Shown: positions 192-43,116 of the stretch, piece by piece
Layout of the letters: each line of letters opens with the position of its first letter
Position numbering within the stretch: the first letter of the stretch is position 1
Assembly: GCA_030445745.1 (NCBI GenBank)
Contig: JASUTE010000004.1
Span: 88,173-152,172 of the forward strand
Direction: 5' to 3'
Length of the DNA stretch: 64,000 bases
Source of the DNA: Candidatus Cloacimonadota bacterium
GTDB lineage: Bacteria; Cloacimonadota; Cloacimonadia; Cloacimonadales; TCS61
Notes under the pieces: generated by a model
Seen by the model: the letters and a program-made list of their open reading frames with translations, nothing else
Database searches by the model: none
Told to the model about the DNA's origin: nothing
Made by a program: the position numbers and the translations under genes

Positions 192-1346
192 AATAGTTCC
201 TGTTTCTCTGTGTTTTATGAGAAATAAAAAGGGATGATCGGCGCGAAAAATTTTGTTTTTCACAGGTGGTGCCGATTTTATGGCAACCACGCCGCCAGTA
301 GCTGCAGCAGCTTCTGTTCCTGTTTCATCTACCTGCACAAATGCTTTATGCAACACTGCACTCAAGTATAGGGCTTTCTGCTTATTCATACCCGAAAGGT
401 CAGCGTCATTGCCGAAGACATCCTTCATTCCCATTTTCTGCAAAACTGCTTTCAAATTCAAGGTTTTAGTAAGCTTAAATTTGGGTATTATTACTTCAAC
501 TCTTTCTGGTTTTGGTTTAGAATGCTGTTTTTCATTGTTGGTAAGTGAACCTAAAACATCATCGATATTGCTGTTTGCTTTAGGCAGTAAAATTTCCAAA
601 TATAGCTCGTTTCGTTTGTAAGGAATTTGAACCAGCTGATACTTTGGATTCTCAGTGTAATTTATGGTTAATTCTTTGCGCATAAAATCAGTTTGCTGTT
701 TTTCGGCAGCAGCATAGAAATAATCCTCAAAATTATTTTTGGGGTCAAATGGGAACTCCCAGTTTCCTAGAAAATAGATGGCATCGGTTAAAACTACTCT
801 GGTTGTAGGTTGCAAAATGCCTGGTTTTATTAAATCTTTTATCTTGTTTTTTGTTTGAGCTTCAACCCATCTATTAATTTTTTGTCTAGATTTTTCCAAA
901 GAAGCTGGTGTAGAAAAATTTAGTTTATAGGCTTCTGTTTGGTAATATTTCTGTAGTTTTTTTTGGTAGGAATTTAGTAGCTGAAAATCTTGCTGCACCC
1001 ACAAGGCATTGGCAATATTCAGTTGGGAATATTTTACCTGTTTCACAGAGTTTGTTTGGGAAGCAAAAGCTGCCTGGAAATCTTCTGAATTATCAAAATA
1101 CAGCACTTGTTGCATCTGTTTAGCGGTGTTACCTTTAGCACCTGCATATACCATCGCCAAAGCGGTTCGGATGCTAAAGGAAGAGAGAAATAAGTTTTCC
1201 GTGGTATCTAGATTTTGTAGGAGGTCGTAGCAGAATTGGTGATTGGGATTTTCTGGCATAGAAAAAGGCTTTTCTGCCTGGTTGGCGGACATTCCAAATA
1301 ACAAGGAATTGATGAGCACGAGGGCAATTAATAAAAGTTTATACAT
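159..1346 (-). CDS. secreted serpin (serine protease inhibitor) family protein
   Basis: 395 aa with an N-terminal signal peptide ([21 protein letters not shown]). It has the serpin hinge and reactive-centre loop [22 protein letters not shown] and the C-terminal signature [23 protein letters not shown]. Confidence 0.9.
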
Positions 1347-2121
1347 ATTTTTCTCCTTCTTGTAATATTTTCGAGCTTTCTACTGCTCTGTAAGGGTAAA
1401 AATTCTTGTTTTCTGGCTTTATCGCTTCAGTGGGGCAAAAACTAAGACAGCGCATACACATTTGGCACTCATCTTCGAACTCGGGATAATGATCCATAGT
1501 GATGTTATCTACTGGACATAATTTGTAGCAAAGTCCGCATTTTATGCACTTGGTAGTGTCTATATCAAATTCATATTTATTTCGTAGGAGATCCAAAAAT
1601 TTTTCACTTTGTGATATTTTTTTCATAGGATTGGGTAGGGGAAGATGAGGCCACTTACTAATGCCGAAAGTGATATCGTGGGCAAATTTACGAGCTTTAT
1701 TAATCCCTTTCTCTTGCAGTTTTTCAACTTTGGGTGCTGGTTTTTTTAGGTTCATATTATGTGGCATTTTTATCTCTTTAGCACCAATGGGACGATAGCC
1801 CTTCTTTTTTAGAAGCCTGTAAACAGCACTTTTTAAACTACTACTAAAAATTGCCATGGTATCCACCATGAAAGCATCTTGCGGTTCTGCGATAGTGGGA
1901 ATATCTTCCAAAAATTCCCAGATAAATTTAAAGGTGGATTGCATAATTACAGGAAAAGCCAAACCTAGTAAATTATCTGGATTTATTTGGTCTGCTTCCG
2001 ATTTTTCTATACGAAAAAGATCAACTTTATAACCATGTGTTTCAAAGAAGTCTTTCATCTCTTTTACCACAAGGTAGGTGTTTCCAGTACCCGAAAAGTA
2101 ATAAAAATCTAATTTTTTCAT
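1339..2121 (-). CDS. EFR1-type flavodoxin-like domain fused to a 2x[4Fe-4S] ferredoxin domain
   Basis: The N-terminus YYFSGTGNTYLVVKEM is a flavodoxin-like signature. The C-terminus carries CIKCGLCYKLCP and CQMCMRCLSFCP motifs. Start overlaps... rather, its stop region overlaps the serpin start by 8 nt. Confidence 0.75.
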   Translation of the reverse strand: MKKLDFYYFSGTGNTYLVVKEMKDFFETHGYKVDLFRIEKSEADQINPDNLLGLAFPVIMQSTFKFIWEFLEDIPTIAEPQDAFMVDTMAIFSSSLKSAVYRLLKKKGYRPIGAKEIKMPHNMNLKKPAPKVEKLQEKGINKARKFAHDITFGISKWPHLPLPNPMKKISQSEKFLDLLRNKYEFDIDTTKCIKCGLCYKLCPVDNITMDHYPEFEDECQMCMRCLSFCPTEAIKPENKNFYPYRAVESSKILQEGEKYV

Positions 2122-16913: not shown

Positions 16914-17480
16914 ATGAAAATAGTCAGAACAGTTATGATCTTGGTGCTAGTATTGCTTTCTGTAGCAGCATTAGCCGAACTAAAAGGAAAGGATTTTGTG
17001 GAGAAGGGTGAACTGCAAGAATTTAGCGGAAACCTAATAAAGACTGATGAAGAGTGGTCTTTACAGACAGAAGAAGCCACTTTTGATTTGCATTTTGGCC
17101 CACAGGAATATCTGCAGAGCAAAGAAGTTGTGCTGCAAGAAGATACAGAAATAAATTTAACGGGCTATTTGTATAAAAAAAATATTGCCGTTGTTAAGTT
17201 TGTTTACTATGATGTTAATGTGGTTTTGCGAAGCGATAAAGGTGATCCACTTTGGCATGGCACAAAATATGCCAAAAAACATGATAAGCATTACGTGGAT
17301 TCCAGCAAATGCATTGGCTGCAAACTTTGTGTTAGTGCCTGCCCCACAGGTGCTATTAGCATGAAAGATGGCAAAGCTGTTATCGATCCGGACAAATGTA
17401 TAAACTGTGGTATTTGTATAAATGGAAATGGTCAGGGGTTTTCCGGTTGTCCGGTAAAGGCTATAAACAAGAATGAATAA
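16914..17480 (+). CDS. signal-peptide protein with an unknown N-terminal domain and a C-terminal 2x[4Fe-4S]-type ferredoxin module
   Basis: Sec signal MKIVRTVMILVLVLLSVAALA. Cys motifs CIGCKLCVSACP and CINCGIC(x9)CP. GGAGGA RBS sits 6 nt upstream of the start. Confidence 0.7.
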   Translation: MKIVRTVMILVLVLLSVAALAELKGKDFVEKGELQEFSGNLIKTDEEWSLQTEEATFDLHFGPQEYLQSKEVVLQEDTEINLTGYLYKKNIAVVKFVYYDVNVVLRSDKGDPLWHGTKYAKKHDKHYVDSSKCIGCKLCVSACPTGAISMKDGKAVIDPDKCINCGICINGNGQGFSGCPVKAINKNE

Positions 17481-18261
17481 ACGAGATAAAATTCGTTTTT
17501 TTAGTCAGCTTTTTTTCCTAATAGTATCGTTAACGCTCTTAGTTTTGCTAATTTTAGGATTTCTAGGAGTATCGCACTCTTACTGTCCATTTGCCAGTGT
17601 TTGTTTTGGAATTCTGGGGCTTAGTCCTGCAGTTTCGGTTTGGTTGTTTAAAACAGCTGCTATTGTAGGAATTCTAATAGCTTTCAGTACGGTCTTTTGG
17701 GGAAGAAAGTTTTGCGGTTATATATGTTTCTTGGGCACACTTCAGGAATTTATTTACAATTTGAACTGCAGCCGGAAAAAGTATTGTCGGAAACTGTCTT
17801 ATAAAACTCATTTAATTTTAAGAGTGTTAAAGTATCTGGTACTTATCTTTACAGCAGTGACTGCTTTCTTGGCTCTACAGTATCTATATATGAAATTTTG
17901 TCCAGTGTATGCATTAGCTCATCCCCAAAACATTAGCTTAGCAGCAGTATTTACTTTAATTGTGATATTTGTTTTGGGAGTGTGGGTCGAAAGATTTTGG
18001 TGCAGATATTTGTGCCCTTATGCAGCATTGATGAATCTATTCCAATATATGGGTAAATTGCTGGGAATTAAAAGACAGAAAATTAGAAGAAATATTGAAG
18101 CAAGCGTGAATTGTAAAACTTGTTCAAATTATTGTCCAATGGGCATAAAAATTGAATGTAAAGAGGAGATAAGTAATATTAACTGCATACATTGTGGTCG
18201 TTGTGTTAGAAAATGTTTGAAAGACAATTTCTCTAAAGAACAGTGTTTATACAGAGATTAA
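17473..18261 (+). CDS. polytopic membrane 4Fe-4S-binding protein (NapH/MauN/NosR-type polyferredoxin)
   Basis: Multiple TM helices. Family-typical motifs RKFCGYICFLG and RFWCRYLCPYAAL, plus C-terminal CKTCSNYCP and CIHCGRCVRKC. 8-nt overlap with the upstream gene. Confidence 0.7.
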   Translation: MNKRDKIRFFSQLFFLIVSLTLLVLLILGFLGVSHSYCPFASVCFGILGLSPAVSVWLFKTAAIVGILIAFSTVFWGRKFCGYICFLGTLQEFIYNLNCSRKKYCRKLSYKTHLILRVLKYLVLIFTAVTAFLALQYLYMKFCPVYALAHPQNISLAAVFTLIVIFVLGVWVERFWCRYLCPYAALMNLFQYMGKLLGIKRQKIRRNIEASVNCKTCSNYCPMGIKIECKEEISNINCIHCGRCVRKCLKDNFSKEQCLYRD

Positions 18262-18264
18262 ATT

Positions 18265-19230
18265 ATGAAAAAGATACTCATATTTTTAGCGATTTTAAGT
18301 TTATTCGCTTGTGATGATTCTATTTCCAAGCTTAGTCTAGATAATACAGCTCCTAACCCGGTTTCTAATTTGCAAATATTAGAAACGGGAGGAGATTATG
18401 TGAAGTTGATATGGAGTGTACCAGATTCCAAAGATGCTGCTTTTTACAAAATTTATAAAAAATTAAGTACGGAAACAGAGACTATTACCAACTTTATTTT
18501 TACCGATCAACTTCAAGTTAACTTACAAAACACTCAGCAGGGTATAATTATAGACAGCTTAGCTTTCAGCAATAATTACGATTTTGCCGTTTCGGTGTGC
18601 GATGAAAGCATGAATGAGAGCGAATTACAAAAAATAACAGGTATTGAAACGCTTAACAATAATCCTGTTGACACAACACCTCCAGGTGATATTGCACAGC
18701 TGCAGTTGGTACCTACATTTTCGGAAGGCTATGAGATAATTGACGTAGTTATAACAGCTTCTTTTGTTGCACCAGGCGATGATGGCGATAACGGTATAAC
18801 CGAGATTGAAGTAAGATATTCACCATTTGGACCAGTTAATTCAGATAACTGGCAAACCGCTTTTCCTTATCAGGGTACAGTTTTTAGTGGTATTGCTGGA
18901 GAAACCACAATAATTGAACTTCCCTTGAAAAAATGTATGGCTCCCCCTCCCGTTCCACCCAATTATGCTTTTTATTTTGCTGCCAGAGCTATTGATGAAG
19001 CAGGAAATACTTCGGCTATCAAGAGTTTTTCTGGTAAAATAACCGCAGAAGTTATCCGTAAAAGCTGTATTTCTTGTTGGGAATGTTTAGATATTTGCCC
19101 GGAAAATGCTATCTCCAAACAAAACGGAAAGGCTTCTATCGATTTGAGCAAATGTGTGCGCTGTGGCGATTGTATTTTAACCTGTGAAGAAAAAGGTAAT
19201 GAAGCAATAAAATATTATATAACAGAATAA
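18265..19230 (+). CDS. lipoprotein with FN3-like domains and a C-terminal 2x[4Fe-4S]-type ferredoxin module
   Basis: Lipobox LSLFAC. FN3-like signatures (PNPVSNLQILETGGDYVKLIWSVP; DTTPPGDIAQLQL). Cys motifs CISCWECLDICP and CVRCGDCILTC. Confidence 0.65.
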   Translation: MKKILIFLAILSLFACDDSISKLSLDNTAPNPVSNLQILETGGDYVKLIWSVPDSKDAAFYKIYKKLSTETETITNFIFTDQLQVNLQNTQQGIIIDSLAFSNNYDFAVSVCDESMNESELQKITGIETLNNNPVDTTPPGDIAQLQLVPTFSEGYEIIDVVITASFVAPGDDGDNGITEIEVRYSPFGPVNSDNWQTAFPYQGTVFSGIAGETTIIELPLKKCMAPPPVPPNYAFYFAARAIDEAGNTSAIKSFSGKITAEVIRKSCISCWECLDICPENAISKQNGKASIDLSKCVRCGDCILTCEEKGNEAIKYYITE

Positions 19231-19247
19231 AAGAGAGGTAGGAGAAG

Positions 19248-19787
19248 ATGAAAAAGAAAATAATTTACGCGATAATTTTGCTGTTTGTAATGGCCGTAAC
19301 ACTATATGCTGCTAGGGTTATCTATCAAATAGACCCCGATCAGTGTAATGGTTGTGGTGAGTGTTTTGTACAATGTCCCAATGATGCTATCTATTATGAT
19401 TATGAAGTATGGACTTATCAGATCAATCCAGAATTATGTGATGGTTGCGGAGATTGTGTAGATACTTGTAATCATAATGCTATTCATGAAGTTGTTAGCA
19501 ATGGCAGTGAAGAGATCGATCCTAATTTAAAGATATCTTGTTTCCCCAATCCACTTAGCTCTAATACAACTATTTCTTATGATATGCACAACGGGCAAAA
19601 AGGAGAAATAGTTATCTTTAACATCAAAGGCAGAAAAATTCGTTCTTTTCCAATAGAAAGCCGTACTGGCCAGGTCAGCTGGGATGGAAAGGATAGAGCT
19701 GGCAATGAAGTTGCAGAAGGTATTTATTTCTATAAATTGAAAACCGGCAATAGAAAAGTGATAAAAAGACTAACTGTAATAAAATGA
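19248..19787 (+). CDS. signal-peptide ferredoxin module fused to a T9SS-type C-terminal sorting domain
   Basis: Signal MKKKIIYAIILLFVMAVTLYA. Cys motifs CNGCGECFVQCP and CDGCGDCVDTC. The C-terminal ~85 aa (CFPNPLSSNTTISY...GIYFYKLKTGNRKVIKRLTVIK) match the por_secre_tail / FlgD-Ig-like pattern. Confidence 0.7.
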   Translation: MKKKIIYAIILLFVMAVTLYAARVIYQIDPDQCNGCGECFVQCPNDAIYYDYEVWTYQINPELCDGCGDCVDTCNHNAIHEVVSNGSEEIDPNLKISCFPNPLSSNTTISYDMHNGQKGEIVIFNIKGRKIRSFPIESRTGQVSWDGKDRAGNEVAEGIYFYKLKTGNRKVIKRLTVIK

Positions 19788-20026
19788 AAAAAATTAATAT
19801 AATTTTAGTTTTAGTGCTGCTGCTCATTATTTCGTGTGCAGCAGCCTCTGCTGCTTATCGAGTAAATACAAACGACTGTGTAGGTTGTAATGATTGTGTT
19901 AAAGTGTGTCCTGTAAATGCGATCTCTATCGAAGATGGAAAAGCTTATATAGACCAGGAGAAATGCATCAAATGTGGGTTGTGTTATAAAACCTGTACTT
20001 ACGAAGTTATTAGGAAATCAAAATGA
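19784..20026 (+). CDS. small (80 aa) signal-peptide/lipoprotein 2x[4Fe-4S]-type ferredoxin
   Basis: MKKINIILVLVLLLIISCAAASA followed by CVGCNDCVKVCP and CIKCGLCYKTC. ATGA overlap on both sides. Confidence 0.65.
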   Translation: MKKINIILVLVLLLIISCAAASAAYRVNTNDCVGCNDCVKVCPVNAISIEDGKAYIDQEKCIKCGLCYKTCTYEVIRKSK

Positions 20027-20265
20027 GAAAAATTGCTATTCTATTCTTGCTAATTGTTCTGATAGCTGTTTGGGGTTGTGAAAAAGTTAGCAATCCCCAA
20101 TATCATGTAGATAAAGAATCGTGTAATGCTTGCGGAGAATGTTTAATTGTATGTCCCGTAGACGCTATTGAATTCGACGCAGATGGTAAAGCTGTGATCG
20201 ACCAAACCAAATGTAACCAATGTGGCAAATGTATAAATGTTTGCCCTCAGGATGCGATATACTAA
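20023..20265 (+). CDS. small (80 aa) lipoprotein-type 2x[4Fe-4S]-type ferredoxin
   Basis: MRKIAILFLLIVLIAVWGC lipobox, then CNACGECLIVCP and CNQCGKCINVCP. Confidence 0.65.
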   Translation: MRKIAILFLLIVLIAVWGCEKVSNPQYHVDKESCNACGECLIVCPVDAIEFDADGKAVIDQTKCNQCGKCINVCPQDAIY

Positions 20266-21461
20266 TGAAAAAATTGTTTTTATTGCTTATAGTTTTATAT
20301 GCTGTAACCGTACAAGCTCAGCTATCCAGTTATACCGATATCAGTTTTCGCTATATTAATACCGATTCCAGTAGTGAATTTTTTACCGATCCCAATGATT
20401 CAGAGGTGAAAAAGGCTAGTGGCTACTCGGGTATGGATTGGGAATATCATCTTAACTACAAGTTCAACAAAAATTTATTTCTTACATGGAATAATCAGCT
20501 TTTTTATTCTGAAGTATCGTCAGAGTTACGCAATTCCTTCCTATACGATAAAAGCCGCTTGAGTATAGGTTTTCGAAATTCTGTTCACAAACTTTCACTT
20601 TTTCTGAATAACAGGTTTTATGGAGATGATGATACCACGATCTCGAATATTGCCGGCTTAGATACTTTGATTAAAAAAAGAGCCACCTTTGCTTATGGCT
20701 TAAACTATGAGCTGAATTTCGGGAAACTAGAATTTGCTACTTCCGGTTACTATAGAAATTTGCGCTACTTAGAATACACAACCAGTCAAAATGAATGGGA
20801 AAATGATCTCTACTTAGCTAGTAAGCTCGGTTACCAGATTATACCACACTGGCAAATTTTCACCAATTTCTACTATAAAGATGACCTAAACCAGGTGGAT
20901 TGGTACGACCAGACTAAATGGGGGGCAGGAGTTGCCTACGAAAATAGATTTGACTTTTTCAACTCTGTAGAAGCAGTGGTGAATTATTTTCATAGCGAAA
21001 CAGATGAGTTGCCCCAATATCAGAATGACTATCTTTTCACCAAAGTTCGCTATTTCAAAAGATTTGGCACAACTTTCAGTAGCTTTATAACTTATATAAA
21101 TCGTAGTACCTACAACACTTCCCAAGAAAAACTCTTGCGGATCTCTAATTTAATAAGACTGCAGGCAAAATATATTTATCAAGAAGGCAGAGCAGAATCT
21201 TCTTATCTACTGTTTTCCGGAAAATATAATCCAGAGAATTCTGGCAGTAAGTTACGCTTGGGTGTGAACCAGCATTTATTTAAAGACCTCTATTTTGGTA
21301 TAGCTGGTGAGTATGCACCAGACCTGTACAATGGTTATGAAGGAGAATTCCGATATTTACTTAGCGGATTTCGCTATCTCTACCTGCGCTATCAACTGCG
21401 GGATTACCAGGATTTTGTTGGTACTCAGAAGATTCAGGCAGGCCTTTCTTACCAGTTTTAA
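20265..21461 (+). CDS. predicted outer-membrane beta-barrel protein, family unknown
   Basis: I place the start at the ATG in the TAATG overlap at 20265 (MKKLFLLLIVLYAVTVQA signal peptide). The track start at 20220 lies inside the upstream gene. The protein is Tyr/Asn/Gly-rich with an alternating strand pattern and a C-terminal ...AGLSYQF, typical of an OMP beta-signal. Confidence 0.55.
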   Translation: MKKLFLLLIVLYAVTVQAQLSSYTDISFRYINTDSSSEFFTDPNDSEVKKASGYSGMDWEYHLNYKFNKNLFLTWNNQLFYSEVSSELRNSFLYDKSRLSIGFRNSVHKLSLFLNNRFYGDDDTTISNIAGLDTLIKKRATFAYGLNYELNFGKLEFATSGYYRNLRYLEYTTSQNEWENDLYLASKLGYQIIPHWQIFTNFYYKDDLNQVDWYDQTKWGAGVAYENRFDFFNSVEAVVNYFHSETDELPQYQNDYLFTKVRYFKRFGTTFSSFITYINRSTYNTSQEKLLRISNLIRLQAKYIYQEGRAESSYLLFSGKYNPENSGSKLRLGVNQHLFKDLYFGIAGEYAPDLYNGYEGEFRYLLSGFRYLYLRYQLRDYQDFVGTQKIQAGLSYQF

Positions 21462-21468
21462 TTTAATT

Positions 21469-21486
21469 TGAGAATCATTCGCAAAA
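21469..21486 (+). promoter_or_regulatory. Fur-box-like palindromic operator, copy 1, abutting a TTGACA -35 hexamer (21493-21498) upstream of fur
   Basis: TGAGAATCATTCGCAAAA. It is near-palindromic, with the AT-rich GAATSATTC core typical of Fur boxes. Two further copies lie at 21982 and 24256. Confidence 0.6.
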
Positions 21487-21981: not shown

Positions 21982-21999
21982 TGAGAATGAATTGCAAAA
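21982..21999 (+). promoter_or_regulatory. Fur-box-like operator, copy 2, 22 nt upstream of the feoB start
   Basis: TGAGAATGAATTGCAAAA, matching copies 1 and 3 at 15-16 of 18 positions. Confidence 0.6.
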
Positions 22000-22020: not shown

Positions 22021-24258
22021 TTGAAAAAATATACAATAGCATTAGCAGGAAATCCCAATTGTGGTAAAACTACCCTGTTCAACGCTTTTACCGGTTCCAA
22101 ACAAAGGGTAGGCAACTGGCCAGGTGTAACTGTAGAAAAAATTATCGGTAACTATAAATATAAAGATGCTGAATATGAAATTATCGACTTGCCTGGAATA
22201 TATTCCTTTTCAGCACATTCGATGGACGAAACAGTATCCCGAGAGTTTATCTTGATGGAGAAACCAGACTTAGTAGTGAACATTATAGATGCTACTAACC
22301 TGGAAAGAACACTCTATCTTACTACCCAGCTTCTGGAAATGAAGATTCCAGTTATTATCGCGCTGAATATGATGGATATGGCTAAACAGCGGCGGATAAA
22401 GATAGAGCTGGATCATTTAGCCAAGCACCTTGATACAAAAATAATATCTATTGTAGCACCCAAAAAACAAGGTCTGGATGAATTAAAACAACAAATTGCT
22501 GAAAGTGTAGAAAAACAACATATTCCTCATACCCAGGTGGAATACGATTCCGTGGTAGAAACAGCTATAAATGAGATAGCTCCGCAGTTAGATAAATATG
22601 CCAAAAAATATCAAGTAGATAAACGCTGGCTAGCTATCAAACTGTTGGAAGAGGACAAGTTAGCTGCTCAGCTTACCAATTCCGACTTAGCAGATCTAGT
22701 AAATCAGCAGATCCAGAAAATAGAAAAACATACTAATAACGATGTGGAAATTGTAATTGCAGATGGACGCTATGGTTTTATTCATGGATTAACTTTGGAT
22801 GTGGTTCATAAAGCTGGTGATGCTCGGCGTAATTTTTCCGATCTGGTAGATAGTATCGTATTAAATCGTGTTTTGAGCATTCCCATATTTTTGGGAGTGA
22901 TGTATCTGGTATTTATGCTAACAATAAATGTGGGTTCTCCCTTCATAGATTTTTTTGATAATTTAATGGGCACTATTTTTGTGGATGGTACAGAGTACTT
23001 TTTACAAAGTCTTAATGCTCCAGCATGGCTTATTTTACTACTGGCACAAGCTTTAGGAGGTAGCATTCAAACAATTTCCACCTTTATTCCTCCTATTTTC
23101 TTTATGTTTCTATCGCTTTCCATTTTAGAAGATTCGGGTTATATGAGCAGGGCTGCTTTTGTGATGGACAGGTTTATGCGCTTCATTGGCCTCCCGGGAA
23201 AAGCATTTATTCCAATGTTGGTGGGTTTCGGTTGCAATGTTCCAGCAATAATGGCAACCAGGACACTGGAAAATAAAAAAGATAGACTCTTAACTATTCT
23301 AATTAACCCATTAATGTCCTGCGGTGCCAGATTACCTGTTTATACACTTTTCGCAGCAGTATTTTTCCCTGAACATGGAGGACAGGTAATTTTTGCACTC
23401 TATCTCACTGGTATTGTCTTAGCTATAATATTCGGGCTAATTTTCAAGAAAACTCTTTTCAAAGGCGAAACTTCTACATTTGTTATGGAACTATCACCTT
23501 ATCACCTACCAACTTTCAACGGAATTATGTTACATACCTGGCAACGTCTGAAAGGTTTTATCATCAGAGCTGGGAAAGTAATCGTAATTTTTATAATTAT
23601 ATTAACTGTGTTAAATTCGGTGGGAATAGATGGAAGTTTGGGCAATCAGGATTCAGAGAATTCTGTGTTAAGCTACATTGGGAAAAAGATTAGTCCGATT
23701 TTCCAACCAATGGGAGTACAGCAGAAAAATTGGCCAGCAGTAGTTGGTATGATGACGGGTATTTTTGCTAAAGAAACAGTGGTAGGAACGCTGGATGCAC
23801 TTTATTCGCAACTGGCTGGAGCTCAGCAGCAAGTAGAAGAAGAAACCGGTTACGATTTTACCTCGGGTATAGTTGCTTCTTTTCGGGCTATAGCTACTGG
23901 ATTTGGTATAATAGAAGCTAAAGATGGAGAAACTACTCTACAAAAGGGTGTTACCAGAGAAATGATGAACAGATTTGGTGGAAAGAATAATGCTTTTGCC
24001 TATCTGCTATTTATACTTATTTATGCTCCCTGTGTGGCTGTAATCGGCGCTATTTACAAGGAAACAAACCTGAAATGGACATTTTTTTCTGTTTCCTATT
24101 TAACCATGTTGGCATGGTTGGTAGCCACTTTGTTTTACCAAGTTTCGATAATTGCGATACAACCTGCTGTAAGTTTGGGTTGGATTCTGGGAATTAGCTT
24201 GATTTTCTTTGGATTCTATAAAACACTACAAAAGATAAAACCAGGTGAAACTTTTTGA
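22021..24258 (+). CDS. feoB: ferrous iron transporter FeoB
   Basis: TTG start preceded by a GAGAGG RBS. N-terminal G-domain GNPNCGKTTLFN...DLPG, followed by the polytopic FeoB permease domain. 745 aa. Confidence 0.93.
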   Translation: MKKYTIALAGNPNCGKTTLFNAFTGSKQRVGNWPGVTVEKIIGNYKYKDAEYEIIDLPGIYSFSAHSMDETVSREFILMEKPDLVVNIIDATNLERTLYLTTQLLEMKIPVIIALNMMDMAKQRRIKIELDHLAKHLDTKIISIVAPKKQGLDELKQQIAESVEKQHIPHTQVEYDSVVETAINEIAPQLDKYAKKYQVDKRWLAIKLLEEDKLAAQLTNSDLADLVNQQIQKIEKHTNNDVEIVIADGRYGFIHGLTLDVVHKAGDARRNFSDLVDSIVLNRVLSIPIFLGVMYLVFMLTINVGSPFIDFFDNLMGTIFVDGTEYFLQSLNAPAWLILLLAQALGGSIQTISTFIPPIFFMFLSLSILEDSGYMSRAAFVMDRFMRFIGLPGKAFIPMLVGFGCNVPAIMATRTLENKKDRLLTILINPLMSCGARLPVYTLFAAVFFPEHGGQVIFALYLTGIVLAIIFGLIFKKTLFKGETSTFVMELSPYHLPTFNGIMLHTWQRLKGFIIRAGKVIVIFIIILTVLNSVGIDGSLGNQDSENSVLSYIGKKISPIFQPMGVQQKNWPAVVGMMTGIFAKETVVGTLDALYSQLAGAQQQVEEETGYDFTSGIVASFRAIATGFGIIEAKDGETTLQKGVTREMMNRFGGKNNAFAYLLFILIYAPCVAVIGAIYKETNLKWTFFSVSYLTMLAWLVATLFYQVSIIAIQPAVSLGWILGISLIFFGFYKTLQKIKPGETF

Positions 24259-24273
24259 GAATGATTTGCAAAA
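24256..24273 (+). promoter_or_regulatory. Fur-box-like operator, copy 3, overlapping the feoB stop codon and 41 nt upstream of feoA
   Basis: TGAGAATGATTTGCAAAA. The TGA at 24256-24258 is the feoB stop. Confidence 0.55.
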
Positions 24274-24314: not shown

Positions 24315-24608
24315 TTGTTTGGAAGAAAAAAAAGACGAAGAGCTAAAGGGAAACGTTGTAAAAATCATCCGCAGTGCAACCGTGGGAGCAATAATAATAG
24401 ATTTTTAAATCTGTGTGAAGCCGAAGTTGGTAGAAAATATGTGGTAGTGGATAATCCAGATCACAAAATAATGGAGATGGGTGTTTTTAATGGCTGTGTT
24501 ATCACTGTACACAAAAATAACCCAAGTGATAGTAATATAATTATAGCGGTAGGTGAATCTCGGTTCATAATTCCCAAGCCAACTGCTTGCCGCATTTTGA
24601 TACGCTAA
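24315..24608 (+). CDS. feoA: FeoA-domain protein with a basic, Cys/His-containing N-terminal extension
   Basis: TTG start with an AAGGA RBS. The C-terminal ~65 aa match the FeoA SH3-like pattern (L..CEAEVGRKYVVV...MEMGVFNGCVITV...IIIAVGESRFII....A..ILI). The N-terminus is MFGRKKRRRAKGKRCKNHPQC. Confidence 0.75.
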   Translation: MFGRKKRRRAKGKRCKNHPQCNRGSNNNRFLNLCEAEVGRKYVVVDNPDHKIMEMGVFNGCVITVHKNNPSDSNIIIAVGESRFIIPKPTACRILIR

Positions 24609-24609
24609 A

Positions 24610-24834
24610 ATGCTCTCGGAAATTATAGAATATTTTCACCAAAAAAAAGTATTAAGTATTTCAGAAATAGCTACTTGGTTAAATTCTAACGAAGAAGCAG
24701 TAGAGGGAATGTTGCAAATACTGTTGCGTAAGAAAATGATAAAGCCGTGGAGACCTGCGTGTAAAAGCTGTAGCTCCTCCTGTGCTTCCTGTAATTTGGT
24801 GAAAACAAAATATTACCAGTGGATTTCTGCTTGA
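24610..24834 (+). CDS. feoC: FeoC-like winged-helix protein with a Cys-rich tail
   Basis: 74 aa. The pattern MLSEIIEYFHQKKVLSISEIATWLNSNEEAVEGMLQILLRKKMI is FeoC-like, followed by CKSCSSSCASC. Confidence 0.6.
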   Translation: MLSEIIEYFHQKKVLSISEIATWLNSNEEAVEGMLQILLRKKMIKPWRPACKSCSSSCASCNLVKTKYYQWISA

Positions 24835-28722: not shown

Positions 28723-29544
28723 CTAACATTTTCTCTTTTTCCTTTTTAAAAATAGCGAAATGAAATAAGCCATACCGCTTAAGATGATTATAGTAGCTCC
28801 AGTTGGTAGGTTAGCTGAATACGAAAGCACAATGCCACTTCCAGTGAATATAATTCCCAATACTGCAGCTATTAACATCATTGTTGCTGGGCTTCTGCTG
28901 AAAAGAAATGCGATAGCAGCGGGTAGAGTTAAAAGTGCTATCACCAATATTATGCCAACAATTTGAATTAGTACCACTATAGTAAGTGCAATTAGAATAA
29001 GTAGAAAGATGTAAAGTAAATTAACCTTCAAACCGCTGATACGTGCATATTTTTCATCAAAAGCGATTGCTATAAACTGACGATAGAAGACAAAAATGCT
29101 GCCAATAATTACTAAATTCAAAATTAACAGGACCCATAAATCGGAACGTGTAACTAACAAAATATTTCCAAATAGGTAGGTCATCAAATCGCTTTTATAA
29201 CCAGGAGTAAGATACATGAAGATTAGTCCTAAAGCCATACCAACAGCCCACAAAGCTCCAATCACTGTATCTTCGTGCTGTGCTCCTTTTAGCTTTATAA
29301 GTCCAATAATTACAGCAGCCAAGATGGCGAATACAAAGGCACCGATAAGGGGCTCGATTCCCAAATAATAAGCAATGCCTATACCACCTAAAACAGTATG
29401 TGCAATACCGCCGCTGATAAATGTGATGCGTTTTATAATGACAAAAGTACCAGTAATTCCACAGACTATGCTAGCCAGAATACCTGCTATGATGGCATTT
29501 TGCAAAAAAGCATGATTTAAAAACGAGTAGAAAAATTCTGCCAT
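28723..29544 (-). CDS. znuB: zinc/manganese ABC transporter permease
   Basis: 273-aa polytopic ABC-3 family permease, positioned in the znuA-znuC-znuB series. Confidence 0.85.
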   Translation of the reverse strand: MAEFFYSFLNHAFLQNAIIAGILASIVCGITGTFVIIKRITFISGGIAHTVLGGIGIAYYLGIEPLIGAFVFAILAAVIIGLIKLKGAQHEDTVIGALWAVGMALGLIFMYLTPGYKSDLMTYLFGNILLVTRSDLWVLLILNLVIIGSIFVFYRQFIAIAFDEKYARISGLKVNLLYIFLLILIALTIVVLIQIVGIILVIALLTLPAAIAFLFSRSPATMMLIAAVLGIIFTGSGIVLSYSANLPTGATIIILSGMAYFISLFLKRKKRKC

Positions 29545-29553
29545 AAAATCTCC

Positions 29554-30285
29554 TTACAAATTACAACCGTGTTCCAAAGCTTTTATAGAACCCATATAAG
29601 CTTGTTGCAGTTTTTCACCTTTAATATCTTTCGTATAATGCGTGCAACTACGCACATTTAAACAGGTTACTTTGTTTACATAGGAAGAAACAAAAGCGAT
29701 GTCGTGAGAAACAAGTAAAATAGTAGTATTTTTGTTTAATTCTTCCAAGGTGTCGTAGATATCTTTTTCTATGGAAGAATCGATAGAGGCGGTGGGTTCA
29801 TCCAGCAGCAAAATTTTGGGATCTGTCATTAGAGCACGGGCAATAAGGGTACGCTGTTTCTGTCCGCCGGAAAGTTCACCCAGCCTTTTTTCAGCTATAT
29901 TTTCTATTTGGAGTTTTTTCAAGAGAGCAATTGCTTTTTTTTGTGCACGTTGTGGGTATTTAGGAAAGAAAGAATTGTTTTGTAAACAGCTCATCATTAC
30001 TACTTCTTTTACTTTAATGGGAAAATCGGAATCGAATTGGGCATATTGTGGTACATATCCTATATGACGACGTGCTTTTTGTGGGGTAGTACCTAAAATT
30101 TCTATCTTACCGCTATCTGGTTGCAAAAAGCCCAAAATTATTTTCAGTAAAGTTGTTTTGCCGCCTCCGTTTGGACCCAAAATAGCCATAAAATCATTTT
30201 CTTCTACTTCCAAATTGATATTTTTCAAGGAAGGTTGAAAGTCATAGCTATAAGATAGATTTTCTATTTTTATTATTTTATTCAT
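29554..30285 (-). CDS. znuC: zinc ABC transporter ATP-binding protein
   Basis: Walker A GPNGGGKTT, signature LSGGQKQR, Walker B LLLDEP. Confidence 0.88.
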   Translation of the reverse strand: MNKIIKIENLSYSYDFQPSLKNINLEVEENDFMAILGPNGGGKTTLLKIILGFLQPDSGKIEILGTTPQKARRHIGYVPQYAQFDSDFPIKVKEVVMMSCLQNNSFFPKYPQRAQKKAIALLKKLQIENIAEKRLGELSGGQKQRTLIARALMTDPKILLLDEPTASIDSSIEKDIYDTLEELNKNTTILLVSHDIAFVSSYVNKVTCLNVRSCTHYTKDIKGEKLQQAYMGSIKALEHGCNL

Positions 30286-31147
30286 TCAATGCCTTTCTCA
30301 GTTGTTGTGCTACCTGTAGTAAATTTTCGGAATAATTAGGTGCTAAGGGATCGATAGAGACCGCTGTGCCACCTATTTGTTCTGCTATCGATTTAGCAAT
30401 AGCTCTGTTAAACTGCTTTTGTATGAAAATGGTTTTTATTTGGTGCTGGTTTGCGAAATCTATTATAGCAGCTAACTCCTTGGAATTTGGGGATTTTCCT
30501 TCCATTTCAATAGGTATTTGGGTTAAATCAAACTCTTCAGCAAAGTAGCCCCAAGAGGGGTGAAAAACCAAAAATTTTCGATTAGGTAGATCTTTTAAAA
30601 TTATGGCAATTTGTTCATGCAGGTTTTGTAGTTCATTTTGGAAACTGCTTAAGTTATTCTGTATTTTTTGTTTATGGTTAGGAAATTGTTTCACAAGCTC
30701 ATTAGCTATATTCTCAGCTTGTTTTTTTACCAAGAGTGGGCTAAGCCAAATATGCGGATCTTGGGTATGTGAAGCGTGATGCTGTTTTGTATCAGCAAGC
30801 AAGTGAGTTTGCATATCTCGCAGTTTGATACCAGCGCGGGTATCAACAATTTTAAGATTGGGATTGGTTTGTTTTATTTTTGGCAGCCAGGCTTTTTCGA
30901 AAGGAACCCCAATTCTGAAAAAAAGAAGCGCATCTGCTAGTTTAGCCATTTGTTTGGGGGTTACTTCATAGGTAGCAGGGTTTGCACCAGGTTGCACCAT
31001 TACCTCTATCTCTACCAAATCTTGTGCCAACTTCTCTACAAAATATTTTTGGGGTAAAATACTAACGAAAACTGTATTTTGGGCATTTTGTGTACTACAG
31101 GAAAATAGAATACCAAATAACACTACTATCAAGCATATTTTCTTCAC
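30278..31147 (-). CDS. znuA: zinc ABC transporter substrate-binding lipoprotein (cluster A-I, ZnuA type)
   Basis: Lipobox ILFSC. TroA/ZnuA fold pattern (DPHIWLSP) plus the His-rich loop HLLADTKQHHASHTQDPH typical of Zn-specific ZnuA. Confidence 0.85.
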   Translation of the reverse strand: MKKICLIVVLFGILFSCSTQNAQNTVFVSILPQKYFVEKLAQDLVEIEVMVQPGANPATYEVTPKQMAKLADALLFFRIGVPFEKAWLPKIKQTNPNLKIVDTRAGIKLRDMQTHLLADTKQHHASHTQDPHIWLSPLLVKKQAENIANELVKQFPNHKQKIQNNLSSFQNELQNLHEQIAIILKDLPNRKFLVFHPSWGYFAEEFDLTQIPIEMEGKSPNSKELAAIIDFANQHQIKTIFIQKQFNRAIAKSIAEQIGGTAVSIDPLAPNYSENLLQVAQQLRKALNE

Positions 31148-38923: not shown

Positions 38924-41900
38924 CTATTTTATTATGGCTATGGGAACTTTTTGAGTTTCTCCCCGAGAACTGATAACTGCAAAATATACACCCGAGCTGA
39001 ATTTGTCAGTAGAAAACCAGATATCTTTAGAATTCCCATCATTTTTTTCTATATTATCCGAATAAATTTTATGGCCAGCTATGTCAAATATCTTAATTTT
39101 TATATCCGCTTTCGCATTTTTCACTTTTATTCTAAATTCACCTTTTTTAGCTGGATTGGGGAAAGCAAAAGCTGCTAAATTTTCAGTCTCGGATATTGGC
39201 ATATCAATAAAAGCTTCATATAAACCACTGTAGTTATTACGGTAACCTTGCCAAACCAAGGGGTTTACCTGGACGGAATCTTTTCGAGAAGCAAAAAGAT
39301 TATGATTACTATCTTGGTGAAAATAGAAAAGATTTTTCTGAGAACCTTGCCAGAAATAACTGTGTTTATTTGTAAATTCGGAATTGGAAATACTGAATTC
39401 TGGATGCTGATTGCCCAGGTTGTCTATAGCTATACTAGCATCATTGTCGGTACTTAGTACTATCATTGTAGCTTGAGCGAAATTTATAATCTCTGGAAAA
39501 CTGTTAGCAAGTATGTTTTTATTTTCCACATAAGCCGGAAATCCTTCCAATAGTGTACCATCAAGAGTTAGAGCAAAAACTCTGTCCCTTATTCCAAAAG
39601 TGATGTAAACCTGATTTTCGTCTGTCAATTTGCCTAAAGCCAATTGTGAAGCTTCATTGCCCCAGTTTTCTGCTGTAAATATTCTTTCATAATCATTACC
39701 AGATAATTTGTAGATATTCGCTTGCTCATCTTGGATGAAAACAGCAGAATTAGCTGCATTTAAGGTATCATTGTAGCAAACTGGTTCGTAATTGGCAGTA
39801 GAGTGTGGCAGATTGATCTGATGAGTAATTTGTCTATTTTCTATGTCTATGAAATTCACCACATTATCGGTAACAGCGATCAACTGGGAATTGTTGTACG
39901 CCAGTTTTGCCGCTGGTAAATCGAACTGGCTCTCTCCTATATATAGTATTTCCGCAGTAGCCACTACTTTCTGTGAGATTTCGGGAAGATAGAGAGGAGG
40001 TGAAGTTATTTCAGTTGGATACTCATTTTCGGAAATATATTCGTCAGAAACAATAGTAAGTTTATTGTTTGCTACTAAATAAAATTCATTATTAGGAGAT
40101 TTTCTGCCAACTGTAATTGGTTGAGTCAACTCACCAGTATATTCTTCTTCCCACTGTAAATGATTAGCTACAGTATTATTTATGATGGAAAAGAGCTCTA
40201 CTTTATTATCTTCCACAACTGGGAAGGTAGGAAAATCATAAATATTACCAACTGGACCGATAGCTTGCAGAAAATCGTATTCAGCTATTTTACTAGTATT
40301 TTGGAAGTACTGCGTACCCAGTTTGAAGCTGATTGTTCGAGTTTGATCGGCCTGCAGGCTGCAGCTACCAATATCGTACACACGGTAGATGGAGTTTTGA
40401 CCGGAATTAAGCTGCAGTGCCGGTTCACTAGTTGACGAAAGCTCGTCGTTAAAAGTAGGAAGTGTTTGCCCAGCAGCATAATTTATGTCCCAATTCAAAA
40501 AATAACCATCACTGCTGAGTTCAGGAAGATATCTGTGGTAGGGCTCATAAGCTGTGCCCCGCCAATATTGAGAATAAGCATTACCAATATCCGGCAGGTT
40601 GTCTGCTTCTATTATTTTTACAGCACGATTGGAATGACTGGTATTTACACTATTGTTGGCAAAGTTATTATTCTCGTACAAAATCTTCTGATCGATATGC
40701 CAAACTACTATGCCACCACCTACAGCCTCTCCGGTGCTCTTTTGCCAGCCGGGTAAAAGATAGTCATATTCATATGTGGGCTGGTCATAAGGATCATCAA
40801 AACGGCAAGGATAAAGAGCAACTCTGTTACCGGAAGTGGTTACAACCGATGTTCCGCCATCACCATCTGAATCTACTTGCCGATTTTCCAAAAGAAGATA
40901 TTCTTCATTTCCCAATGGGATCTTTACAAAATATGGGTTTTCGCAGTTTTCTGTAAGTTTTTTTTCAACTGGTTCTAAAATGATCTCTTCGTCAAAAGTT
41001 AAATCAGAGGCATTTTTATAGATTCTTTCTTGTTGGAATTCATTTTCCCACACCAGTAACCGAGTCCAAACACTGGGTAAAGTAGGCAGGACGCCTTCTA
41101 TATAAAATAGTTTATCATCTTGTCCGTCGCCATCGGTATCTTGCACAACACCAGAAAGCCCAGCTCCGCCACTATCCATAATATCCCAATAACCTACTTC
41201 TGGTCTATGATTGTAAGTATTGTATAGATCTACAAAGCCCAAAGAATGACCAAATTCATGAGCCATAACTGCATTAATAACTCCATAATTGTAAACAATA
41301 GGCATTGAATTAGTTTCGTATTGTTCTATATCTTGCGTTATTGTTTCAGGTACATTACAAGCATAGTCTATCATCACAGTACCATCATCTACGTAAACTT
41401 CTTTTCCGTCTCCCATGGTAATAAAGAAAGATGGCATGTCATTGGGTGAATTACCCAAAACATCATGCTGCCAGTCCGAACCAGCGTGAATTAGCATAAA
41501 ATGATCGTATTGGGAAAAATCTATCTGAGGCGAGGTTTGATCGGCGATATGGAAACAATCGGCAAAGTATTCCTCGAATCTACTAACCATTAGTTGTTGA
41601 TCAGATGTACCTGGTGAATAATAGGACAATTTATGGGGTAAGGTATAGGCATTAAATTCACCAGATTTAGAAACTGGAAAGATATCGTAGTTCAAATTAA
41701 AATTACCAAAACTGACAGCTTTGTAATAATATCGCAGACTAGTTAGTTGATCGCTAAAAAACTGATAGTTATGAGGAGGTTTTCCCAAACTGGGTTGGTA
41801 TCCCGTGGTATCTTGCACAAATTGACCATTGCCAGTGGTAGTGCTGGTTGTATCTGGTTGAAATTGAACTAAAAGCACAAGAAGATTTTCAAAGTTCCTA

Positions 41901-42067
41901 GATTTTGCTAAGATCTCTCTTTTACCAACACCAGAAAATTCTGTTTCCAGTGGATGCACATTTTTTTCCTCTATTTGAGGATATGATATTTTTTGCAGCT
42001 TCATTTTCTCAGCTATTGCTAACTGAGAAAACAGCAGCAGACAAAATATTAAGCTGAAACGCTTCAT
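38924..42067 (-). CDS. M6 (immune inhibitor A-like) family metalloprotease with a T9SS-type C-terminal sorting domain
   Basis: 1047 aa with a signal peptide and the zinc motif VMAHEFGHSLGFVDLY. The C-terminal ~80 aa (AFAFPNPAKKGEF...SGVYFAVISSRGETQKVPIAIIK) fit the por_secre_tail pattern. TAATG overlap with the upstream gene. Confidence 0.8.
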   Translation of the reverse strand: MKRFSLIFCLLLFSQLAIAEKMKLQKISYPQIEEKNVHPLETEFSGVGKREILAKSRNFENLLVLLVQFQPDTTSTTTGNGQFVQDTTGYQPSLGKPPHNYQFFSDQLTSLRYYYKAVSFGNFNLNYDIFPVSKSGEFNAYTLPHKLSYYSPGTSDQQLMVSRFEEYFADCFHIADQTSPQIDFSQYDHFMLIHAGSDWQHDVLGNSPNDMPSFFITMGDGKEVYVDDGTVMIDYACNVPETITQDIEQYETNSMPIVYNYGVINAVMAHEFGHSLGFVDLYNTYNHRPEVGYWDIMDSGGAGLSGVVQDTDGDGQDDKLFYIEGVLPTLPSVWTRLLVWENEFQQERIYKNASDLTFDEEIILEPVEKKLTENCENPYFVKIPLGNEEYLLLENRQVDSDGDGGTSVVTTSGNRVALYPCRFDDPYDQPTYEYDYLLPGWQKSTGEAVGGGIVVWHIDQKILYENNNFANNSVNTSHSNRAVKIIEADNLPDIGNAYSQYWRGTAYEPYHRYLPELSSDGYFLNWDINYAAGQTLPTFNDELSSTSEPALQLNSGQNSIYRVYDIGSCSLQADQTRTISFKLGTQYFQNTSKIAEYDFLQAIGPVGNIYDFPTFPVVEDNKVELFSIINNTVANHLQWEEEYTGELTQPITVGRKSPNNEFYLVANNKLTIVSDEYISENEYPTEITSPPLYLPEISQKVVATAEILYIGESQFDLPAAKLAYNNSQLIAVTDNVVNFIDIENRQITHQINLPHSTANYEPVCYNDTLNAANSAVFIQDEQANIYKLSGNDYERIFTAENWGNEASQLALGKLTDENQVYITFGIRDRVFALTLDGTLLEGFPAYVENKNILANSFPEIINFAQATMIVLSTDNDASIAIDNLGNQHPEFSISNSEFTNKHSYFWQGSQKNLFYFHQDSNHNLFASRKDSVQVNPLVWQGYRNNYSGLYEAFIDMPISETENLAAFAFPNPAKKGEFRIKVKNAKADIKIKIFDIAGHKIYSDNIEKNDGNSKDIWFSTDKFSSGVYFAVISSRGETQKVPIAIIK

Positions 42068-43116
42068 TAAAATTCTAATTTAGCAGAGAAAGTTTTGTTA
42101 TAGTCTGTCATTTCACCAGCCGGCTGCATGGCAAAGTCAATTGATAACTTGTATTTTCCCGAAAATGCATAATGAATACCGCCACCAAAAGAGAAGCCGT
42201 CGATAGCACCAGCCTCATCGTAGATGTAACCTGTTCTTAAGGAAAGAAGATCCAAATATACATATTCTGCACCACAGTTGTAGATAGGAGCATCACCGCC
42301 CCAAGCTGTAAATAGTCTCTGGTAAAAAGCATCATCATTATCGGTTGCTAGCACTTTATTAAAATCGGCATTAATGGTGAATTTGTTCATCTGTGTCTCT
42401 AGAACTCGGTAGGAAATTCCCATTCTCCAGTTCATAGGCAATTGGTCCGATTGAGATTCATTGATATAGGTGATGTTTGGGCCCACATTTTGCAAGTTCA
42501 AGCCAGCATCAAGTCCTCTGAGGAAAAGGTCTTTTCTTTTTACACCAAAGTCGAAAGCATAACTCATTCCACGTCCTTTTACCCCAGATTCTGTTTCTCC
42601 TTGTCCTTCTGGTGCAAGGTCACTGTAGATGAATTTAAAAGTAATACCCAAGCCTGTTTTGGGATTTAACTGATAGCCATAGCTAATAGCAGGGGCGGCT
42701 TCCCAACTGCTAAAAGTGCCTTGGTAATTTCCTTCGGAATCGTATTCTTCCTGTTCGCCGTAGGTCATAAAGATCATATTAAAACCTATATTTCCAATAT
42801 TTTCATAATATTTGTTCCACCCGATATATTCATAATACATATCGTTGATATCGGAAACATCACCCAGCCAGTTTGTATGCATCCAGGCAAATTGATTTTT
42901 TCTGTTAAAAGCCATAGCCCCTGGATTCCAATAACCAGCATAAGCATCATCTACTTGTGCCACGTAAGCAGAACCCATAGCTCCAGCACGGGAACTTGGT
43001 TCTATAAGTAAAAAGATAACGGCAGATTGAGATACAGCAGTGGCTGTAGCGGGGATAAGTAATGACAAGATCATTGCGATCAGTATCCATTTAGATTTCA
43101 TAAAATTCCTCCACAA
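42067..43116 (-). CDS. PorV/PorQ-like outer-membrane beta-barrel protein
   Basis: Signal peptide present. The N-terminal motif FLLIEPSSRAGAMGSAYVAQVDDAYAGYWNPGAMAF matches the PorV/PorQ (UPF0164-like) signature. The C-terminal ...FSAKLEF is an OMP beta-signal. Confidence 0.7.
   Translation of the reverse strand: MWRNFMKSKWILIAMILSLLIPATATAVSQSAVIFLLIEPSSRAGAMGSAYVAQVDDAYAGYWNPGAMAFNRKNQFAWMHTNWLGDVSDINDMYYEYIGWNKYYENIGNIGFNMIFMTYGEQEEYDSEGNYQGTFSSWEAAPAISYGYQLNPKTGLGITFKFIYSDLAPEGQGETESGVKGRGMSYAFDFGVKRKDLFLRGLDAGLNLQNVGPNITYINESQSDQLPMNWRMGISYRVLETQMNKFTINADFNKVLATDNDDAFYQRLFTAWGGDAPIYNCGAEYVYLDLLSLRTGYIYDEAGAIDGFSFGGGIHYAFSGKYKLSIDFAMQPAGEMTDYNKTFSAKLEF

Follow-up and report, generated by a model that had tools for sequence, protein, structure and literature searches.

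How can ferredoxins that carry export signals and no twin-arginine motif reach a site outside the cytoplasm, and where would they acquire their clusters? The question is raised by a seven-gene operon (nucleotides 16914–21461, forward strand) in a 64-kb stretch of DNA from a Candidatus Cloacimonadota bacterium, referred to at its full length as the window. The textbook rule holds that extracytoplasmic Fe-S proteins are assembled inside the cell and exported folded by the twin-arginine translocation (Tat) system. To our knowledge, the established extracytoplasmic proteins of the ferredoxin type all go through Tat, whether directly or as hitchhikers (NapG, NrfC, HybA, DmsB and the Rieske proteins). 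Of its seven products, five contain 2x[4Fe-4S] ferredoxin domains, one is a NapH-like membrane polyferredoxin and one an outer-membrane beta-barrel, and in the list of open reading frames (ORFs) adjacent stops and starts overlap or lie at most 17 nt apart. The ferredoxin domains are very probably extracytoplasmic and not targeted to Tat, and export of the apoproteins with cluster insertion afterwards is the reading best supported by the sequences. Identical sequences are found in metagenome assemblies from JGI and Logan and in a Candidatus Cloacimonadota metagenome-assembled genome (MAG) at NCBI (PWQ09_718-721, MDN5353962-65).

The first gene, g1 (16914–17480), encodes 188 amino acids (aa) with a Sec-type signal (MKIVRTVMILVLVLLSVAALA/E, the slash marking the predicted cleavage point), an N-domain of ~100 aa that matches no family and a 2x[4Fe-4S] domain at the C-terminus. 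The g1 stop overlaps by 8 nt the start of g2 (17473–18261), which encodes a 262-aa NapH/MauN-like membrane polyferredoxin with four transmembrane (TM) helices, and because of this overlap g1 is a candidate NapG-like partner of g2. The product of g3 (18265–19230) is a 321-aa lipoprotein with the lipobox LFAC followed by DDS, with Fn3-like repeats and, at the C-terminus, a 2x[4Fe-4S] domain. [quoted passage not shown] Two 80-aa 2x[4Fe-4S] ferredoxins follow. FdA (g5, 19784–20026) has a Sec-type signal and its start overlaps the stop of g4 (ATGA), while FdB (g6, 20023–20265) is of the lipoprotein type, with the lipobox VWGC at residues 16–19; its lipid-anchor Cys19 lies 14 residues before the first cluster Cys. 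The last gene, g7 (20265–21461), overlaps the stop of FdB by 1 nt and encodes the 398-aa barrel protein, with a signal ending TVQA/Q and the C-terminus SYQF. A scan for promoters and terminators gave a signal no better than chance.

The two 80-aa proteins begin with MKKINIILVLVLLLIISC and MRKIAILFLLIVLIAVWGC, exactly as quoted in the first-pass annotation of this DNA. That annotation had also counted five signal-bearing ferredoxin-module proteins and had seen no RR in any of them, and both statements hold: the set consists of FdA and FdB together with g1, g3 and g4 upstream, and RR is absent from the N-terminus of each. Start correction uncovers no cryptic Tat motif; reading each of the five frames upstream to the preceding stop gives no ATG, GTG or TTG, and their frame-extended N-termini contain no [ST]RRxFLK-like motif. 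In the homologues of g1 the cluster Cys residues are conserved, and a hydrophobic signal without RR is found in 19/19 relatives.

The wider comparison covers 50 non-redundant loci (46 from a scan of one genome per species and 4 from other databases), whose ORFs were classified by BLAST. Here the earlier description of both 80-aa proteins as lipoproteins stands for FdB, in which C19 is invariant and a lipobox is present in 46 of the loci, but falls for FdA, in which Cys18 occurs in 1/50. Because of this, and because the h-region of FdA relatives ends in A-I-[ST], a signal-peptidase-I-like site, FdA is more aptly called a Sec signal-peptide protein than a lipoprotein. The lipobox pattern ([LVI][ASTVI][GAS]C within ~15–25 residues) is thus present in FdB and g3 and not in the FdA family. 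Signals of the signal peptidase I type are found on g1, g4 and FdA, and lipoprotein signals on g3 and FdB. Since the same signals recur on the same genes in about 50 related loci, the pattern is far beyond chance.

The composition of these signals also bears on how the proteins cross the inner membrane. All five window ferredoxins have K/R-rich n-regions of 2–4 residues followed by very hydrophobic h-regions. The h-regions are 16–18 residues long, the length of a signal peptide. Across the 50 loci the mean of the best Kyte-Doolittle 12-mer in the h-regions of FdA and FdB is 3.3–3.4 (3.4 for FdB), with a minimum of 2.6. Their n-regions contain KK in 25/50 cases for FdA and 26/50 for FdB, a single K or R in 11–13, KR or RK in 8–11, and RR in three cases each. 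KK pairs and hydrophobic cores of this kind are properties of signals for Sec and the signal recognition particle (SRP) rather than for Tat. The long n-region and moderate hydropathy of a Tat signal are found neither in FdA and FdB nor in the window proteins.

It could nevertheless be supposed that folded holo-ferredoxins leave through Tat by means of degenerate, non-RR signals. Rare natural Tat signals with KR exist, as do Tat-dependent lipoproteins in other phyla, and a minority of the family does carry KR, RK or RR in the n-region. However, KK or a single basic residue is found in the majority, the n-regions are short, the hydropathy of the h-regions lies well above that of Tat signals and favours Sec/SRP, and extension of the reading frames reveals no consensus motif. 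Known T9SS cargoes, moreover, use Sec (PMC11285876). Neither TatA nor TatC (tblastn, E. coli queries) nor any match to a regular expression for Tat-type signals was found in the window and 95 loci, a sample of ~0.65 Mb in loci of at most 20 kb that is too small for a claim of absence and does not include the complete Cloacimonadales chromosomes OY782831.1, OY762964.1 and OY782499.1. Taken together, export through Tat is very unlikely.

The charge pattern around the hydrophobic segments is equally consistent. Basic residues occur only before the helix in the five window proteins, the 15 residues past the h-region being neutral or acidic. Such a pattern, under the positive-inside rule, puts the N-terminus inside and the ferredoxin domain outside the cytoplasm. 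The first-pass annotation had kept as one possibility that the hydrophobic N-termini are membrane anchors for domains that face the cytoplasm, and RnfB would be the precedent: RnfB-type proteins combine an N-terminal helix with cytoplasmic Fe-S domains, RnfB itself is among the domain-level matches, and with uncleaved anchors of this kind the biogenesis problem would disappear. This idea is contradicted by the N-in, C-out charge pattern, by the lipoboxes of FdB (46/50) and g3 (30/35), by the signal-peptide length of the h-regions, and by the T9SS CTD of g4, the Fn3 repeats and the co-transcribed outer-membrane barrel. A cytoplasmic position of the ferredoxin domains is therefore extremely unlikely. 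The window contains an internal control in the form of a 260-aa fusion of a flavodoxin-like domain with a 2x[4Fe-4S] domain (1339–2121, reverse strand), a ferredoxin-domain protein of the cytoplasmic type that has no signal and no hydrophobic N-terminus.

Evidence for a location outside the cytoplasm that is independent of the N-termini comes from g4. Residues 99–177 of its product (nt 19542–19778) match the T9SS CTD families TIGR04183 with 41.6 bits (cut-off 23) and PF18962 with 39.1 bits (cut-off 27), and the orthologue on a complete chromosome (locus L045) also ends in a T9SS CTD (28.6 bits). Over the usual motifs, the g4 CTD can be aligned with the CTDs of two further cargoes encoded in the window, both of which carry a Por_Secre_tail and lie on the reverse strand: a 1047-aa M6-like peptidase (38924–42067) and a 1090-aa X25/CBM-type protein (50476–53748). 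The peptidase gene adjoins a homologue of PorV, the outer-membrane cargo shuttle of T9SS (42067–43116, reverse strand; PF19572, 76.3 bits, cut-off 27), and this pairing of a PorV homologue with a CTD peptidase indicates that the source genome has T9SS machinery. Genes of the T9SS have been reported in Cloacimonadota, and the cargoes of this system use Sec for export; once their signal peptide has been removed they fold in the periplasm and are then secreted (PMC11285876).

The g3 family points in the same direction. Its members are 300–1055 aa long, with a lipobox in 30 of 35 relatives and one to several fn3 domains inserted between ferredoxin domains. Many carry a ferredoxin domain at both ends of the Fn3 stalk, the first directly after the lipobox; in the relative from locus L011, for example, fn3 is matched with E=2e-27 and is accompanied by an N- and a C-terminal Fer4. 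A separate observation concerns the residues that follow the lipobox. In a comparison of loci L011, L013–L016 and L018–L044 with the window gene (18265–19230) these residues are conserved and acidic (C-[ST]-D-[ST]-L-D-K, with CDDSISK in the window). The motif bears a resemblance to the signals that direct Bacteroidota lipoproteins to the cell surface.

The conservation of the module extends well beyond the signals. The species scan returned 80 loci, 47 of which (L016–L062, one duplicating L013) contain close FdB matches with 48–80% identity. Nearly all of these carry a Cloacimonadota label, complete Cloacimonadales chromosomes among them, and the exceptions are three 'uncultured bacterium' entries and one labelled Armatimonadota. 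In the comparison of 50 loci FdA occurs in 49, with a hydrophobic signal in 49/50, and the barrel gene lies 3' of FdB in 49/50. The other ferredoxin genes are less constant, the Fn3-ferredoxin lipoprotein being found in 21 of 31 loci, a g1-like gene in 13/31 and a small T9SS-ferredoxin resembling g4 in 4/31. FdB corresponds to 33 database clusters of ~80 aa, three of which are labelled Cloacimonadota or Cloacimonetes in GenBank while most have no organism label. The module is probably specific to Cloacimonadota. The scan matches in Candidatus Eisenbacteria were rejected as relatives of the module, being cytoplasmic HdrA-like flavoproteins. The locus labelled Armatimonadota (L031, JAUWNO010000109.1) carries the full module (Fn3-ferredoxin, FdA, FdB, barrel and DsbD_2), and because it is nearly collinear with L025 and L041 the label is probably a binning error.

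Do the exported domains then hold clusters? The Cys motifs of all five operon ferredoxin proteins are of the Fe-S type, and the proteins score 57.7, 30.7, 51.9, 57.3 and 61.5 bits against Pfam Fer4 (cut-off 21.1). FdA and FdB contain two CxxCxxCxxxC(P/T) motifs each (Fer4 57–61 bits, cut-off 21), and in the FdB alignment C19, all eight cluster Cys and both Pro residues are invariant. Mature FdB matches solved 2x[4Fe-4S] domains, with MvhB polyferredoxin at 1e-26 and further matches to FwdF, RnfB and NrfC as well as to the clostridial ferredoxins 1FCA, 1FDN and 1CLF. Given these matches and the invariant pairs of CxxCxxCxxxCP, the binding of [4Fe-4S] clusters by domains of the FdB type would be the most economical reading.

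The first-pass annotation had also raised the possibility that the Cys motifs bind something else. In this case the proteins would be exported as described, and the motifs would carry no [4Fe-4S] cluster in vivo and serve instead in disulfides, in binding another metal or as a thiol redox or sensor device, with DsbD_2, a membrane protein encoded next to the barrel in many related loci, as the reductant. Several observations are compatible with this. Fe-S assembly systems are not known outside the cytoplasm, the CcdA/DsbD type to which the conserved neighbour belongs is typical of thiol-disulfide chemistry, and the AlphaFold2 (AF2) model of FdB, made without cofactor, is poorly ordered (predicted local distance difference test, pLDDT, 59.8) and was excluded from the fold search. 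However, both CxxCxxCxxxCP motifs are invariant down to the Pro, with no sign of the relaxed conservation of a motif that has lost its cluster; every one of the closest solved matches is a genuine 2x[4Fe-4S] domain; and a co-encoded NapH-like polyferredoxin implies electron transfer. With eight invariant Cys, two invariant Pro and such matches, a ligand other than Fe-S seems unlikely, and the account without clusters as a whole is distinctly improbable.

The barrel encoded by g7 has no match in Pfam or NCBIfam, and its family is tiny, with 76 members among 1.84 billion representative proteins (exhaustive HMMER search). The relatives end in LIF or IIF and the window protein in SYQF, with a terminal Phe. 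The AF2 model of g7 has low confidence (pLDDT 52.7) and was built on a shallow alignment, the word-indexed database having given 2–4 homologues; it shows ~18–19 long antiparallel strands. In Foldseek this model retrieves outer-membrane barrels exclusively, with template-modelling scores of 0.34–0.45. On the strength of the signal peptide, the terminal Phe, the strand pattern and structural neighbours that are all outer-membrane barrels, g7 is predicted to be an outer-membrane beta-barrel.

Two kinds of inner-membrane protein accompany the exported parts. The product of g2 matches Pfam Fer4_5 twice (49.7 bits, cut-off 22) and scores below the equivalog cut-offs of NapH (TIGR02163 napH, 66.6 against 213; NF007013, 52.7 against 234), so that by sequence it is related to NapH and MauN and lies outside the family by the NCBI criterion. 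Its four helices are predicted to leave the N-terminus, the pair of CX3C(P) motifs and the Fe-S motifs at the C-terminus in the cytoplasm (K/R-rich loops 0, 2 and 4), an arrangement known for NapH (PMC5449189). The CX3C pairs C81/C85 and C177/C181 are conserved in 100% of the homologues. The predicted periplasmic loops, which are poor in K and R (residues 32–46 and 133–153), contain C38 and C44 (93%), C143 (100%) and C32 (60%), and these residues could form a redox or cluster site that faces the periplasm.

The second protein, DsbD_2 (PF13386), is encoded directly 3' of the barrel gene in 32 of the 41 loci in which the contig has room for it, for example in L011 (11334–12332) and L014 (11703–12695). 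Scores of 72.3 and 71.1 bits (cut-off 24.9) were obtained for such neighbours in relatives. C19, C23, C104 and C128 are invariant in 34 sequences and form a pattern of CxxxC in TM1, a Cys in a cytoplasmic loop and FCP in a later TM helix (TM4). The C-terminal domain of ~135 aa is very acidic, free of Cys and without a family or solved homologue; if the topology follows the six helices of CcdA, it is predicted to be periplasmic. Neither g2 nor DsbD_2 has a solved homologue. The 64-kb window contains no DsbD_2, and fur-feo takes its place.

This substitution raises the possibility of an iron-related function. Downstream of the barrel gene the window has fur, feoB, feoA and feoC, which occupy the exact position of DsbD_2 in 32 of 41 other loci, and because of this positional swap an iron-related role is kept as a rival. 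The ferredoxins would have the same exported location and would serve the acquisition of iron or Fe-S rather than the disposal of electrons, by reducing Fe(III) or capturing Fe or FeS from a sulfidic environment; the barrel would admit iron, and it would be imported by FeoB in the species of the window and by the Cys-lined DsbD_2 in others. DsbD_2 shows a weak match to ArsG, and its superfamily includes what we take to be thiol-lined permeases for soft metals. NapH-like polyferredoxins also participate in iron uptake by FtrABCD. The Fus system provides an example of a ferredoxin that passes an outer-membrane barrel in the course of iron piracy (PMC6042079, PMC6793856). However, the adjacency of Feo is limited to the species of the window, and five separate electron carriers exceed the needs of a simple uptake system.

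The regulatory sites are also unfavourable to this explanation. The Fur-box-like palindrome TGAGAATNATTNGCA occurs in exactly three exact copies in 64 kb (21469–21483, 21982–21996 and 24256–24270), immediately upstream of fur, feoB and feoA, respectively, and no such site precedes g1 and the ferredoxin operon. This distribution suggests that fur-feoBAC is an autoregulated unit, separate from the ferredoxin genes. Other loci have DsbD_2, a TetR gene with RND efflux genes, or unrelated genes 3' of the barrel. As adjacency is confined to one species and Fur boxes to fur, feoB and feoA, Feo was rejected as a part of the module, and a role in iron acquisition is considered rather unlikely.

Several features of the neighbourhood are worth recording in their own right. 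FeoA (24315–24608) is extended at its N-terminus by a highly basic stretch of ~30 residues that includes Cys (beginning MFGRKKRRRAKGKRCKNHPQCNRG), an unusual feature, and the FeoC-like protein (24610–24834) has a Cys-rich tail, CKSCSSSCASC, that resembles cluster-binding FeoC. A ZnuABC-type metal transporter of the ATP-binding cassette family (ZnuA, ABC-3 permease and ATPase; 28723–31147, reverse strand) lies ~7 kb downstream of feo, so that several metal-uptake systems are clustered in the window. A full-length bacterial serpin with a signal peptide is encoded at 159–1346 on the reverse strand (Pfam Serpin, E=1e-106). Serpins are uncommon in bacteria.

The observations can be assembled into a model in which the ferredoxins would pass the inner membrane through Sec, unfolded and free of cofactor, and would then be lipidated or handed to T9SS as ordinary cargo. 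Clusters would be gained only after export, in the periplasm or at the cell surface. The simplest route of loading would be self-assembly from Fe2+ and sulfide in an anoxic, sulfidic habitat. Clostridial-type apoferredoxins can be rebuilt chemically from Fe2+, sulfide and thiol. Sulfide can reportedly supply Fe-S assembly in vivo under anoxia (PMC13015791), and Cloacimonadota are anaerobic fermenters of anoxic habitats (PMC8542988). DsbD_2 might assist in one of two ways: it could hold the eight thiols in the reduced state, in the manner of CcdA with apocytochromes, or it could act as a Cys-lined permease that provides metal.

Electrons would enter from cytoplasmic reduced ferredoxin or quinol by way of the pair formed by the NapH-like protein and g1, or by way of DsbD_2. 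The next carriers would be FdA and FdB, situated within or beneath the barrel, where their four clusters would span approximately one membrane thickness. The outermost carriers would be the Fn3-stalk lipoproteins and the T9SS-anchored ferredoxin, from which an external acceptor or partner would be reduced. Such a path would be the counterpart of a porin-cytochrome conduit, built without cytochromes. The full model, which joins Sec export, Fe-S loading after export and a trans-envelope path for electrons, has about an even chance of being correct. The proposition that Cloacimonadota possess Tat-free [4Fe-4S] ferredoxins that are loaded with clusters after passage through Sec, and a cytochrome-free porin-ferredoxin wire for low-potential electrons, is more tentative, its chances falling a little short of even.

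A number of points weigh against the model. We know of no established bacterial pathway for the insertion of Fe-S clusters outside the cytoplasm, and the module contains neither an Fe-S scaffold nor a desulfurase with a signal peptide. It also lacks a terminal reductase or an identifiable external acceptor. The inner-membrane partner differs from genome to genome: 7 of 31 loci have a NapH-like protein and 32 of 41 have DsbD_2, and a few have neither close by. The size of the barrel and the placement of ferredoxins inside it are inferred, both AF2 models (g7 and FdB) being of low confidence. The genes of the operon are labelled 'hypothetical protein' in GenBank, and the Tat sample has the limits described above.

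If the model is true, the conserved Cloacimonadota set would be the first clear natural exception to the Tat rule, and clusters would be insertable after export, either spontaneously in sulfidic, anoxic habitats or with the aid of a CcdA-like protein. It would also provide a possible non-haem route for electrons across the diderm envelope of abundant fermenters and syntrophs, as yet uncultured, that live in anaerobic digesters and anoxic waters, with a bearing on interspecies electron transfer and on the cycling of iron and sulfur. The mature proteins are tiny (~60 residues) and available under accessions MDN5353962-65, which makes these ideas directly testable. The literature searched contains no account of ferredoxins exported by Sec, lipoprotein or T9SS signals, nor of the module, and a paper on Cloacimonadota genomes whose MAGs contain the module makes no mention of it or of Tat.

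Comparison with known systems shows partial likenesses on several sides. With NapGH and MauMN the module shares a four-helix NapH-type polyferredoxin and a translationally coupled outer ferredoxin partner, here g2 and g1. However, NapG uses Tat and holds four clusters, whereas g1 combines a Sec-type signal with two clusters and an additional N-domain; g2 lies far under the NapH cut-off (66.6 against 213), and no Nap catalytic subunit is encoded in the module. Even in NapH-NapG fusions an internal twin-arginine motif is kept and Tat is required (PMC5449189). NrfC, HybA, DmsB and the extracellular DmsAB of Shewanella likewise place 2x or 4x[4Fe-4S] domains outside the cytoplasm, and NrfC is among the solved matches. 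These proteins are exported folded by means of an RR signal or by hitchhiking, whereas the module proteins have their own Sec, lipoprotein or T9SS signals.

Two further systems resemble the module in how the cofactor would be acquired. System II of cytochrome c maturation (CcdA, ResA and CcsBA) also combines Sec-exported apoproteins bearing Cys motifs with a neighbour of the CcdA/DsbD type. Here the cofactor would be Fe-S instead of haem, no ResA- or CcsBA-like partner is present, and DsbD_2 differs in its Cys pattern and its acidic C-terminal domain. The Listeria lipoprotein PplA, which is reportedly flavinylated outside the cell by FmnB, is likewise a redox lipoprotein exported by Sec and said to be loaded with its cofactor after export. 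It differs in its covalent flavin mononucleotide, its known dedicated transferase and its monoderm host, and it is not homologous. The Fus locus of Pectobacterium also brings together a ferredoxin, an outer-membrane barrel and iron (PMC6042079). However, Fus imports a [2Fe-2S] ferredoxin of the host plant through a TonB-dependent receptor and degrades it, whereas here the organism encodes and exports its own ferredoxins, and the barrel shows neither a plug nor TonB features.

A parallel in gene logic exists with MtrCAB and PioAB/MtoAB, in which one operon likewise encodes a redox protein of the periplasm, a barrel of the outer membrane and a redox lipoprotein at the surface. The likeness is functional and architectural only. 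No operon protein matches a cytochrome family, and the module contains no CxxCH haem motif. Its cofactor motifs are of the [4Fe-4S] type, and its barrel of ~400 aa (~18–20 strands) has no sequence relation to MtrB (~700 aa, 26 strands). The module fails the defining tests of the NapGH, MtrCAB, System II and PplA/FmnB classes and departs clearly from the NapG/Tat rule. By analogy with porin-cytochrome conduits, it plausibly moves electrons across the outer membrane.

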